Origin: Sulfurospirillaceae bacterium
GTDB taxonomy: Bacteria; Campylobacterota; Campylobacteria; Campylobacterales; Sulfurospirillaceae
DNA: 64,000 nucleotides
Reading direction: 5' to 3'
NCBI GenBank assembly: GCA_033723415.1
Contig: JAWVXD010000008.1
Span: 1-64,000, forward strand
Positions 242 through 3,960 of this stretch are shown here, in pieces; the stretch's first letter is position 1; every line of letters begins with the position of its first letter. The notes beneath the pieces are model-generated. The model saw only the letters and a program-made list of their open reading frames with translations. It was not told the origin of the DNA and searched no databases. A program made the position numbers and the translations under genes.

Positions 242-628
242 TTATTCTGCTACAGGTACTTCTACAGGAGTAGATTCCCATAAGCCGTGTTTTGTACAAT
301 ATCCATGAGCAACAAGTTTTAATTTTTTACCCATAGGTCTTATATTAAATGTTACTTCTGTATGCGATTTTTCATTACCTAAAGTACCTGGAACAAAATC
401 AGCTCTTGCAAGTAGTGTTTCCCCGTTATAAAGTGCAATGTTTGCAATATAATGATCAAAATCATCTGGATGAGTATATTCATTTCCCATTTTTACTGTC
501 ACTTGAAATACTTCACCTTTTTTTGCTTCGCTTGCGCAATGGACAAATGGTGAATGTCTATCAATATAATCTTTCTTTGATTCTCTTTCGACTGTGTCAA
601 TATCGACATAACGATTAACTGTTGGCAT
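242..628 (-). CDS. Desulfoferrodoxin/neelaredoxin-like (class II SORL) superoxide-reductase-like protein
   Basis: Iron-ligand pattern H..HP...HYI...YCTKHGLWE; SD AAGGAG upstream. Confidence 0.85.
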   Translation of the reverse strand: MPTVNRYVDIDTVERESKKDYIDRHSPFVHCASEAKKGEVFQVTVKMGNEYTHPDDFDHYIANIALYNGETLLARADFVPGTLGNEKSHTEVTFNIRPMGKKLKLVAHGYCTKHGLWESTPVEVPVAE

Positions 629-691
629 AAAATCTCCTTTATCTTGTTTTGATAATGTATTATAATATAAATAGGATTAATTTAGTCTTAT

Positions 692-1537
692 TTATATTAT
701 TTTTGTTTTCACCTTATGATCATTTAATCCTAATACATCTTTATTTGTCTCTCCAAAGCCAAGTAACAATATTTGAGCCAAGCCAAATACGCTTAGACCA
801 ATCTCTCTTCCGACAGATTTTTCCAGTTCTTTTTGGTGTTTATCAAACATTACAAAACTTCTTGCGTCATTTACAACTACAAAATCAGCGGCATTGTCAA
901 ACATATCCAGCATCAATGCCCCAGACATCTTAAATGCTAAATTTGGATTTATATCCAGTATTTCATATCCGCTGCTTTGGTCTTTTAAATCATAATTTAT
1001 CACATTTATGCCCAAAATATTTAGTATCTCAGAATATGAATCAAGATCTGTATATTTGCTTATCAGACATTTGTGTGAACCGAGATACATTGCTGCATTA
1101 AATTGTTCAAATTTATGTTTAATGTGCTTTGAGATCTTTTTATTTCCTAACTCTTTTACTAAAAAGTCTGCTAATGTGTATATCTCTATATCTAGATCTA
1201 GTTCCAATTTTTCCTCTCTAAGTAGAGAGTTGATCTCATTCTTCAGCTCTTCATTATTTTTTAATTCTTCTACACATACACAAAGAGATAAATATGAGCT
1301 GTCATCAGCACATATGATACTGCATTGTTCTTTATTCGCCAAAGCCAAATTTTTAGCATTATTTATATAGAAATTTTTCATATCAAATCCCATATCTTCA
1401 ATGCCTGTGTCTCTTGAGAAATTTTTTATATTAACAAGTTTTACATTTAAAAATTTTAACAGTTCTTGTGTAGATCTGGCAATCGGTTCTGTCGTATTTA
1501 TATCTATAATGCTATCAAATAGTACATATTTTTTCAT
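692..1537 (-). CDS. HdrB/SdhE-like (CCG-domain) protein lacking the cluster-binding cysteines
   Basis: NAKNLALA, ADFVVV and FD..QKELEK..G segments follow the HdrB/SdhE layout, but the CCG and CxxC positions read RDTG, DDSS, SSG and DARS. Confidence 0.7.
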   Translation of the reverse strand: MKKYVLFDSIIDINTTEPIARSTQELLKFLNVKLVNIKNFSRDTGIEDMGFDMKNFYINNAKNLALANKEQCSIICADDSSYLSLCVCVEELKNNEELKNEINSLLREEKLELDLDIEIYTLADFLVKELGNKKISKHIKHKFEQFNAAMYLGSHKCLISKYTDLDSYSEILNILGINVINYDLKDQSSGYEILDINPNLAFKMSGALMLDMFDNAADFVVVNDARSFVMFDKHQKELEKSVGREIGLSVFGLAQILLLGFGETNKDVLGLNDHKVKTKII

Positions 1538-2169
1538 ATTTGACTCCTTGATCGTGATATTTCATTTTTGATATCTGATATTTTTTTCTCTACTTCAAAA
1601 TCAAATGGAAAAACTTTATTGCAGATATCAGTGTGAAGCCAAATTCCAGTCTCTTTATTATCTATAATGTTGAAAATCTGTTTAGCTTGTCCAGGGTATT
1701 TTTTTGCCATTTCATATGCAAAAAGAAATAGAGCATCTCCTTGGAAATCATCAGTATAATCATAGACATCCGAAGCATAGTGATAGATTATGAGCTTTTC
1801 AAAGATTTTTTTATCTGACGCTACAACAAAAGGGTCAATCAAGTCAAATTTTTTATAAAAATCTTCCGTATTGATTATTAAATCTTTTGTTGTTCTTTTT
1901 TGATTCATAGGAAGCAGGGTTAACTCTTCGCCAAAAGCTTCAACTATTGCTGATATTTTGGTTTTTGTAAAGAGATTTTTACCCAAAATACTAATAGCAG
2001 CATTTCTGCCTACAGGGTAATCAAATAGTCTATCCTCTTCTTTGATTAGGGCCAGTAAATCATCTAAAGTTTTACTATCTTCAATTTTAATTATATGCTT
2101 CTTATAGAATGGAAGATAATCACACGATGCGTCAAATCTAAACACACTTAATCTAAGCTCAAGCTCCAT
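1534..2169 (-). CDS. SdhB/FrdB N-terminus-like protein without Fe-S cysteine motifs (probably DUF5644-type)
   Basis: LSVFRFDASCDYLPFYKK...TLDDLLALIKEED resembles the SdhB N-terminus; ATGA overlap with the downstream gene. Confidence 0.6.
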   Translation of the reverse strand: MELELRLSVFRFDASCDYLPFYKKHIIKIEDSKTLDDLLALIKEEDRLFDYPVGRNAAISILGKNLFTKTKISAIVEAFGEELTLLPMNQKRTTKDLIINTEDFYKKFDLIDPFVVASDKKIFEKLIIYHYASDVYDYTDDFQGDALFLFAYEMAKKYPGQAKQIFNIIDNKETGIWLHTDICNKVFPFDFEVEKKISDIKNEISRSRSQI

Positions 2170-2359
2170 AATATGTACTCCTTTGTTTGATCATGAACAT
2201 AATTTGACATTAGTTTACTCTAAATAAACTTAATCTCTAACAAAATAAAAATTTACTGTATAATGCCTCGAAAAGTATAAGAATATTTGACATAAAATAT
2301 ACATGAGATAAAAAATCTAAAATCTAGAACACTATAATATGATACAAAGGAGACAGATA

Positions 2360-2437
2360 ATGAAGCACTATGTGCAAAGAATCAGCTTGTCAGAGAGAGA
2401 TTTATATATAAATGAATTCCGAGATATAGGAGAATGA
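2360..2437 (+). CDS. Small ORF 1 upstream of truD, 25 aa: MKHYVQRISLSERDLYINEFRDIGE
   Basis: SD AAGGAG (2347-2352) 7 nt before ATG; TATAAT at 2333-2338; similar to small ORF 2. Confidence 0.6.
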   Translation: MKHYVQRISLSERDLYINEFRDIGE

Positions 2438-2439
2438 TA

Positions 2440-2523
2440 GTGAATAATACAAAAACGATTGTTTTATGCTTTAGTGAGATGAATTTGTTTTGGAACAGAT
2501 TCTGTGAGAAAGGAGAAAATTAA
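2440..2523 (+). CDS. Small ORF 2 upstream of truD, 27 aa: MNNTKTIVLCFSEMNLFWNRFCEKGEN (alternative ATG at 2434)
   Basis: SD AGGAG (2428-2432) 7 nt before GTG; stop codon ends 1 nt before the truD ATG; similar to small ORF 1. Confidence 0.55.
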   Translation: MNNTKTIVLCFSEMNLFWNRFCEKGEN

Positions 2524-2524
2524 T

Positions 2525-3607
2525 ATGAATAGATTGTTTTTTTTAAAGCATTCTGCAGTTGACGTACTTTTTACAAAAAATTCCAGTGATTTTGTAGTCA
2601 ATGAGTTGCCTTTATATGAATTTTCAGGTGAAGGGGAACATTTAATACTACAAATACGTAAAAAGAACATGACCACATGGGATATGCTTCAAAAACTAAG
2701 CGAAGTGTGCGGTGCAAAAGTCAGGGATTTTGGATATGCAGGGTTAAAAGACAAAGATGGTTTGACAACTCAGTATGTATCCGTACATAAAAGTTATGAA
2801 GATAAATTTGCAGATTTCAATGATGATAAGATAAAGATCGTTTCCAAGACATATCATAATAATAAGATAAGAATAGGACATTTAAGCGGCAATAGATTTT
2901 TTATAAGATTGAAGAAAGTAAATAAGATAGATGCAAGTAAACTTGAAAATGCAATAAAAGTTTTGGCAGAAGAGGGCTTTCCTAATTATTTCGGATATCA
3001 GCGCTTTGGTGTTTCAGGAGATAATTATAAAATTGGTAAAGAGATACTAGAGGGTAAACGAAAAGAGAGAAGAGCTAAGATGAAAAACTTTTTTATAAGT
3101 GCATATCAAAGTCATCTTTTTAACGAATGGTTGTCTTCACGTATTGAGATTTCACATCTTTTAGAGGGTTTTGATGACGGTGAGGCAGTAAAAGCACTCG
3201 GCTTTTCAAAAGAATTGATAAAAGAGTTACGCAGGCAAAAAAGATTTTTAAAAATATTCAAAGGAGATGTTGCCCACCATTATCCTATAGGAAAAGCTTT
3301 CTTATGTGAAGATTTAGGGACTGAAATTGAGCGATTTTTCAATAAAGAGATAACACTTACAGGCTGGTTACCTGGAGGTAGGAGCATGAGAAGTGAAGAA
3401 TTTGCAAAAGAACTAGAAGATAAAGTGTATGCAGAAGCAGAACAATACTTGAAACAAATGGATGGTTCGCGCAGGTTTGCTTGGGCATTTTTAAAAGATG
3501 TTGAGTATAAATATAAAGAGGATGAAAATTGGTTTGAAATGCATTTTAGTTTACCGAAAGGATCGTATGCAACAGTTGTTTTAGAAGAATTGACTCATAA
3601 ATTATGA
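2525..3607 (+). CDS. truD: tRNA pseudouridine(13) synthase TruD
   Basis: DFVVNE, GEGEH, GYAGLKDK...TTQ, PNYFGYQRFG and LPKGSYATVVLEEL motifs; start set at ATG 2525 behind SD AAGGAG. Confidence 0.95.
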   Translation: MNRLFFLKHSAVDVLFTKNSSDFVVNELPLYEFSGEGEHLILQIRKKNMTTWDMLQKLSEVCGAKVRDFGYAGLKDKDGLTTQYVSVHKSYEDKFADFNDDKIKIVSKTYHNNKIRIGHLSGNRFFIRLKKVNKIDASKLENAIKVLAEEGFPNYFGYQRFGVSGDNYKIGKEILEGKRKERRAKMKNFFISAYQSHLFNEWLSSRIEISHLLEGFDDGEAVKALGFSKELIKELRRQKRFLKIFKGDVAHHYPIGKAFLCEDLGTEIERFFNKEITLTGWLPGGRSMRSEEFAKELEDKVYAEAEQYLKQMDGSRRFAWAFLKDVEYKYKEDENWFEMHFSLPKGSYATVVLEELTHKL

Positions 3608-3620: not shown

Positions 3621-3947
3621 CAAAAGGTACAACAGGTGGTAGCTTAGAGAAATCTAAGAGGAAAGTCCGGGCTGTTTTGAGACAGGGTTTCGTCTAACGG
3701 ACGACTGGGGTAACCCAAGGGATTAGTGCAACAGAAAGTAAACTACCGCGCAAGCGGCAAAGGTGAAACGGCGAGGTAAGAGCTCACCAGAGTCTTGAGT
3801 AATCTAGACTGCTATGTAAACCCAACCTGCAGCAAGAATGGATTGGTTTCGTCTCATATTTATACCATTCGCTAGAGTATTATCGCAAGATAGTAAGTAG
3901 ATAAATTATCACCCACGACAAAACCCGGCTTATCGTTGTACCTTTTG
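3621..3947 (+). ncRNA. rnpB: RNase P RNA (bacterial type A)
   Basis: Conserved GAGGAAAGTCCGGGCT, AGTGCAACAGAAA, GGTGAAACGGCGAGGTAAGAGC and ACAAAACCCGGCTTAT; terminal helix CAAAAGGTACAAC/GTTGTACCTTTTG. Confidence 0.97.
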
Positions 3948-3960
3948 TTCTAGTCTTTTC

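Follow-up and report, generated by a model that had tools for sequence, protein, structure and literature searches.

REP/RAYT elements are palindromes associated with Y1 transposases, short hairpin repeats that occur in lineage-specific bursts, and Rickettsia palindromic elements are found inserted into RNase P RNA. The primary paper on mycobacterial interspersed repetitive units (MIRU) is said to be that of Supply et al. from 1997. In the portions of the literature that summarize them, MIRU are mobile, insert at start codons and carry an internal ORF coupled by a −4 spacing (PMC12548453), with a size of 40–100 bp and 40–50 copies (PMC3184786). The same summary covers Neisseria REP2 and Borrelia IR-A/IR-B (PMC3184786), and Rickettsia palindromic elements are described as palindromic repeats that carry an ORF (PMC10969869).

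We analyzed a stretch of 64,000 nucleotides from a Sulfurospirillaceae bacterium (hereafter the window), in which two mini-ORFs precede truD. Profile and matrix matches identify ORF1 and ORF2 as decayed copies, arranged in tandem, of a start-codon repeat of ~80 bp with two hairpins. As far as the cited summaries describe MIRU, this element shares with them its size, about 40–50 copies per genome, an intergenic position within operons, sites that are filled in some genomes and empty in others, inverted repeats inside the unit, an apparent start-codon insertion and an internal ORF whose −4 (ATGA) overlap couples it to the following gene, a coupling that is here predicted from sequence. It differs from MIRU, to which it is likened by description, in its phylum and its AT-rich sequence, in bringing its own SD and using three reading frames, and in that about two thirds of the copies (214/328) have no 5' ATG and some lie in rnpB or before rRNAs. 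By analogy, the element appears to work like a MIRU, and we do not file it as a MIRU member; the MIRU strategy would have been reached in a different phylum. Two stem-loops, an RBS as well as an ATG are also features of REP2, which differs in measuring 120–150 bp and in having a promoter and a co-regulated gene set, neither a promoter nor a regulon being evident here (PMC3184786). Unlike REP2, the ~80-bp element occurs in tandem arrays that contain a relay ORF. The element also resembles RPE-1, but Rickettsia palindromic elements insert in frame inside genes, unlike the ~80-bp element, and kinship was rejected after the RPE1 model TIGR01045 gave no match in the genome at E ≤ 10. Like REP/RAYT, it consists of short hairpin repeats with lineage-specific bursts; unlike REP/RAYT, it keeps a strict sense orientation before starts, and the Y1 gene has no copies on its flanks. 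No description of the repeat was found in the literature outside subscription journals and supplements, or in Rfam, and the family is apparently unpublished.

Layout and family membership of the truD leader

The leader and its neighborhood contain the following features, in window coordinates:

1534–2169, minus strand: divergent gene with an Sdh/Frd iron-sulfur-subunit-like N-terminal domain (below curated cut-offs), synteny anchor with relatives
2259–2264, plus strand: TATAAT, candidate ancestral −10 box of truD, in the stretch common to same-genus and syntenic relatives
2333–2338, plus strand: TATAAT, candidate −10 box, absent from the promoter-scan output
2346–2353, plus strand: SD AAAGGAGA of ORF1, resembling the 3' end of the repeat
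2360–2439, plus strand: repeat unit 1, strongly decayed, containing ORF1 and the SD of ORF2, second hairpin lost
2360–2437, plus strand: ORF1, 25 aa
2428–2432, plus strand: SD of ORF2, AGGAG, inside unit 1
2434–2437, plus strand: ATGA, where the in-frame ATG of ORF2 overlaps ORF1's stop codon TGA
2440–2524, plus strand: repeat unit 2, with ORF2, the conserved core at 2468–2486, a weak remnant of hairpin 2 and the truD SD
GTG 2440 or ATG 2434 to TAA 2523, plus strand: ORF2, 27 aa for 2440–2523
2509–2516, plus strand: SD of truD, within unit 2
2525–3607, plus strand: truD, tRNA pseudouridine(13) synthase (NCBIfam NF002154, 524.6 bits against a cut-off of 469)
3624–3948, plus strand: rnpB (RNase P RNA, Rfam RF00010), with no repeat copy in the window

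The elements listed in the initial annotation, i.e., TATAAT at 2333, SD and ORF1, SD and ORF2, and truD at 2525, are all present in the sequence, and in both ORFs the codons GGA GAA are indeed the SD of the next ORF. The coordinates 2440–2523 given for ORF2 also stand, with the correction that the start at 2440 is a GTG and that an in-frame ATG at 2434 overlaps the ORF1 stop. ORF1 and ORF2 are joined by this ATGA overlap, the ORF2 stop lies 1 nt upstream of truD, and the proposed SD/stop/start relay into truD is likely a working arrangement. A consensus promoter scan yielded 2 matches, compared with 3.9 expected by chance, and the TATAAT at 2259–2264 was among them. In nine syntenic relatives, a −10-like hexamer is located 29–33 nt upstream of the truD start. 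The TATAAT at 2333–2338 shows no listed difference in X3, a DNA run from a closer relative. Window positions 2346–2379 match another repeat locus, C5:82830–82863, at 88%. Divergent from truD, window positions 242–2169 on the minus strand carry a cluster of Sdh/Frd Fe-S-like, HdrB/SdhE-like and desulfoferrodoxin-domain genes with genus-wide synteny.

Searching the leader against its own genome by blastn revealed a recurring 19-nt core. An iterated nhmmer profile had 44 matches at E < 1 (39 at E < 0.01) in this genome and none in the reversed genome, and ORF2 DNA was still among the matches (E = 4.6e-5) when the profile was built without the window. A CM derived from 77 of 120 distinct GTDB copies, picked for regular spacing, counted 37 copies in the own genome; unit 2 (2440–2528) matched CM R1 with 40.5 bits (E = 3e-6) and unit 1 matched the CM partially (E = 0.47). 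ORF1 was recovered with a PWM from 28 ATG-bearing copies, in which it ranked 14th of 90,024 ATG positions in the genome, all 13 higher positions being repeat copies. Its score of 20.5, versus −12 for the best non-member, was matched by none of 20,000 shuffles and, minus the SD and ATG terms, amounted to −3.2 versus a background 99.9th percentile of −13.6. The truD ATG is located at +49 relative to the core, with the unit in sense orientation to the gene; this agrees with the family arrangement, in which SD and start codon close the unit 44–49 nt after the core (family mode +46/+47). ORF1 and ORF2 are truly related because both match the genome-wide repeat, and their description as paralogous was correct. 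A third unit at 2280–2359 was also considered and discarded, its PWM score being that of the background median.

Structure, distribution and putative insertion sites of the repeat

In young copies an ATG, which may be missing, is followed by a hairpin of 4 bp, an unpaired core that is conserved, a hairpin of 12 bp, AAAGGAGA and the start codon, in this order. Thirteen of their 16 pairs change on both sides, with a covariation of 0.647 compared with 0.218 after shuffling, and the invariance of the core in the alignment is by construction, because the alignment was anchored on the searched core. Hairpin 2 has 62 G-U versus 13 A-C oppositions, an excess that indicates the sense strand. Its energy is −0.1 kcal/mol in unit 1 and −2.6 kcal/mol in unit 2, compared with a family median of −10 kcal/mol; the window units are classified as decayed members because neither has two intact hairpins. 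Fold z-scores were 0.38 for unit 1 and −2.15 for unit 2 together with the truD start. The truD start is predicted to be accessible (mean unpaired 0.68; 0.48 with ORF2 melted), and folding gave no support to occlusion of the truD SD until ORF2 is translated. In Rfam, the window and 15 loci with intact copies matched only rnpB and 16S rRNA. Some units contain a second small insert with a common 11-nt motif (G000:C5:215060–215187, G000:C3:327651–327753, L143 and G024 parA); the one in C5 has 42 nt and keeps the frame.

The repeat was present in all 24 searched genomes of the family with 2 to >100 copies, compared with 0–1 copies in 16 genomes of other families. In a sample of the phylum, 10 of 141 genomes had CM matches, with 0 of 51 and 0 of 53 in the two largest families. 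The exact core matched at least 121 GTDB stretches, and the 80 core matches listed were from Sulfurospirillum, Sulfurimonas, Sulfurovum, Arcobacter, Nitratifractor, other Campylobacterota or unclassified. Of the 119 copies with enough flank, 98 have a start codon with an open frame downstream, versus 0 of 120 on the opposite side. Of 99 downstream ORFs, the 60 that were scanned belong to housekeeping genes unrelated to each other and with no functional theme, and among the results listed for 43 genes and two operon regions, each in ~20 relatives, the presence of units was patchy. Two exact core matches in viral contigs, taken up as a possible phage link, are regarded as chance because hairpins and SD are missing.

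Filled and empty sites at rplO-secY, parA and parB differ by an ATG[unit]SD-ATG in place of a plain stop/start junction; in the empty state of rplO-secY, the stop adjoins the ATG. Seven genomes have an ORF of 16–48 codons with variable length and sequence at rplO-secY, which spans from the upstream stop to the secY start in G000, G001, G003, G009, G010 and G012 and ends there in the G002/G011 type. The ORF from the 5' ATG stops early in G004 and G007, and G013 has a short frame only (200 nt examined). A version of 40–48 codons with a conserved N-terminal half was observed in G000 (L153:11434–11580), G001, G002, G010 and G011 and is possibly a domesticated repeat-derived leader.

Units also occur at non-coding RNAs. 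The rnpB genes of three relatives (G008, G015, G023) carry a full unit (L011:2726–2813, L021:2725–2811 and L020:1261–1347, respectively) with complementary ends and a degraded SD, which replaces the loop of a variable helix that we take to be P12. In the rRNA operon of G017, units are located directly upstream of 16S and 23S (L338:237–315 and 2382–2460), where there is no protein start, and an inverted unit follows 23S (L338:5434–5495, minus strand). Related-looking hairpin inserts without profile score precede 16S in G041 and G057.

At protein starts, the arrangement suggests insertion at the ATG with a short ATG(A) duplication. ATGA constitutes 168 of the 215 ATG starts after units versus 604 of 1226 genome-wide. 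With regard to the tetranucleotide direct repeats that MIRU have at both ends, at least 4 nt from the ATG are shared in 42 of 52 units, and shuffled pairings behaved likewise (P = 0.29). No site-specific target duplication longer than ATG(A) was seen.

Reading frames and peptides of the mini-ORFs

The frame test comprised 328 distinct units from all fetched loci and the own genome, including the rnpB/rRNA copies and the two viral core matches. A 5' ATG is present in 114 units and absent in 214. In 66 units this ATG is translatable, having either an SD or a stop that adjoins it upstream, and 56 of their frames are open, compared with 22 of 48 where it has neither (Fisher P = 1.4e-5); stops in the variable hairpin interrupt the main frame in 4 of 55 ATG units versus 63 of 214 others (P = 4e-4), pooled values that overstate significance because related copies and tandem neighbors were counted as independent. 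In the own genome alone, 13 of 14 ATG copies are open versus 13 of 22 non-ATG copies, which is borderline (P = 0.054). A mutation simulation (P = 2e-5) was given little weight because it ignores the constraint on the core. The open consensus frame could have been inherited from active subfamilies and not selected site by site.

Forty-six of the frames with a translatable ATG stop within −16 to +4 of the next start, and the corresponding relay peptides have 25–29 residues and are spelled in different frames (26, 13, 6 and 1 other). Across the family, 27 of 48 relay ORFs terminate in the ATGA overlap. Differences between units are even across codon positions, and pN/pS to the nearest neighbor has similar values in translated units (0.72, 26 units) and in untranslated ones (0.68, 159 units). 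Judged by these substitution patterns, the mini-ORFs show no peptide-level selection, and it is the frame, not the peptide, that persists in repeat copies. This persistence of the frame in three frames provides a statistical handle that is lacking from the MIRU summaries. It also calls for caution in small-protein surveys, as dozens of SD-led ORFs of 25–29 codons per genome stem from one repeat in these bacteria.

The initial annotation had compared the C-termini of ORF1 and ORF2 and interpreted them as peptides under selection. The reported identity of 7 of 15 residues and the codon differences, among them Ser TCA versus AGT, were reproduced. In this 15-residue alignment, 27 of 45 nt of the DNA are identical, and at least 7 identical residues arose in 10.8% of 20,000 simulations in which substitutions were placed at random, leaving the SD codons unchanged and allowing no stops (27.6% when all 25 codons are considered). 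Because 10.8% of random placements reach it, the peptide match adds nothing beyond the DNA match. Selection on the peptide is not supported, given this probability (P = 0.11) and the similar pN/pS of translated and untranslated copies. A duplicated small-peptide family did not hold up either, given the use of three frames and the absence of the suggested motif SExxL[YF]xNxFxxxGE from all 46 relay peptides; it occurs in 1 of 244 units, a set that includes the window's own unit. The S and E of the motif derive from the DNA core, which is conserved with or without translation of the copy. Among the matches listed, tblastn of both peptides against the own genome returned noise only; NCBIfam has no family for either peptide, four versions of the ORFs are absent from a collection of 15 billion proteins, and a repeat-finding program did not report the ORF1/ORF2 pair.

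Origin of the truD leader

No unit was found upstream of truD in 29 GTDB relatives, and in nine syntenic same-genus genomes a leader of ~30 nt follows the −10 box. Closer relatives are represented by the DNA runs X3 and X4, in each of which a single contig spans the leader; the runs X2 and X6 do not reach it. At this locus X3 is 83 nt, i.e., one unit, shorter than the window, and 37 other letters connect the initial 29 nt at the place of ORF1 with the final 16 nt of unit 2. The stretch in X4 is shorter by 163 nt, compared with 165 nt for two units, and judged by this length has zero units. Reading by hand showed that the X3 unit, the closest orthologue observed, keeps the ORF1 frame without a stop until the ORF2 TAA, with at most five unlisted differences that may fall in the first codons of ORF1, and that it keeps only L of the motif residues S, E, L, N and F. 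SD, frame and stop position are kept in both window units and in the X3 unit despite 25–28 differences per 64 nt to the nearest translated copies. With 0, 1 and 2 units, lost hairpins and a kept relay, the truD locus forms a compact natural series, which is suited to testing ribosome delivery by short upstream ORFs and expression tuning by repeat number. Compared with window positions 2389–2508, the 37 replaced letters of X3 are ~40% different from unit 2 and the flanks 3–7% (hand count); this stretch may have eroded fast or been replaced by another copy.

We consider it likely that a MIRU-like repeat inserted at the truD start and that the mini-ORFs relay ribosomes to truD whatever peptide they spell. 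A unit would land at the ATG of a gene, leaving the old SD and ATG upstream and supplying a new SD and ATG downstream. Ribosomes that initiate at the old SD and ATG would have to traverse the unit, so that versions whose frame terminates at the new start would persist, and the mini-ORFs likely survive because a frame that is open up to the following start would deliver ribosomes to truD. Units in tandem would form a chain in which the preceding ORF reads each SD as Gly-Glu or Gly-Asp, which would explain the Gly-Glu relay first noticed at this locus. Over time hairpins would erode and SD and frame remain, as at truD. Translation of the mini-ORFs and its coupling to truD are putative, and coupling may add little because truD has its own strong SD and a start that is not predicted to be occluded. 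A farther-reaching version, which we regard as doubtful, is that the host has domesticated the repeat: erosion of hairpins with retention of SD, frame and stop would turn it into a ribosome-delivery leader, the number of units (0/1/2 at truD) would be a heritable dial on translation of housekeeping genes, and spread would target the ATG at gene starts and at 5' ends of stable RNAs.

The units could also be neutral debris of this repeat, in which case the mini-ORFs would owe their open frames to descent or to chance and truD would be translated unaided from its own SD. The decayed hairpins, the occurrence of zero, one and two units among close relatives, the strong truD SD, which is predicted to be accessible, and the 13 of 22 open non-ATG copies in the own genome agree with such a scenario, which is nevertheless unlikely in view of the SD, frame and stop kept in the three diverged units of the window and X3, and of the family-wide frame bias. 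It is further opposed by G013 (L010), where a different, unrelated-looking SD-led ORF of 14 codons, 44 nt before truD, has an ATGA overlap with truD and may be a collapsed unit.

Far less probable are two readings that assign a function to the product or the structure of the leader. The first, in which the ORFs form a duplicated small-peptide family or else a leader that stalls or senses in two stages and is tuned to TruD's modification of tRNA, would be in line with the 7/15 identity and its partly synonymous codon differences. TruD acts on tRNA-Glu, and ORF1 and ORF2 each have 3 Glu codons, above the family mode of 1–2. This interpretation is largely refuted by the simulated identity, the similar pN/pS values, the even differences across codon positions, the three frames, the motif missing from the relay peptides and the single one of five motif residues left in X3; neither a peptide conserved upstream of orthologues nor a dN/dS well below neutral, as expected of a conserved leader or arrest peptide, was found. 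The truD-specific cassette of the initial annotation is also at odds with the element being upstream of truD in 0 of 29 relatives and preceding unrelated genes and non-coding RNAs. The second is a cis-regulatory RNA, i.e., a switch or protein-binding leader whose copies still regulate truD by structure, to which the strong covariation, the conserved and unpaired core and the sense-strand G-U bias of young copies might point, together with the fold z-score of −2.15 for unit 2 and the truD start. Such regulation is highly improbable given downstream genes without functional theme, the patchiness of the repeat at orthologous junctions, its occurrence within rnpB and upstream of 16S/23S rRNA, the lack of an Rfam family and the loss of most of the family hairpins in both window units.

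Searches for Y1, GIY-YIG, RT and IS110 did not identify a mobilizer of the repeat. Of 41 genomes, 32 have Y1 transposases, whose presence showed no apparent relation to repeat copy number, and nearly all GIY-YIG matches are frames of ~600 aa, likely UvrC. The own genome has one RT, no IS110 and a single Y1 gene, which has no repeat copy on its flanks; among 14 Y1/RT loci, one has a repeat copy, ~800 nt away. A RAYT-like Y1 transposase gene of 219 aa (L152:455–1114, G000:C1) lies beside a restriction-modification-like gene and has short repeats on both sides that are unrelated to the ~80-bp element. A reverse-transcriptase gene (L395, G000:C1:80814–81374; frame of 579 aa) has no repeat copy nearby.

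At five truD starts, L002, L003, L011, L013 and L022 (G003, G004, G008, G012 and G001, respectively), an ATC codon aligns with Met1 of truD and lies a few bases downstream of AAGG, which resembles an SD. Nearby in-frame ATG, GTG or TTG codons are absent from L002, L003 and L013 and located at codon −2 in L011 and −8 in L022, and a non-canonical AUC start is possible for truD of one clade.
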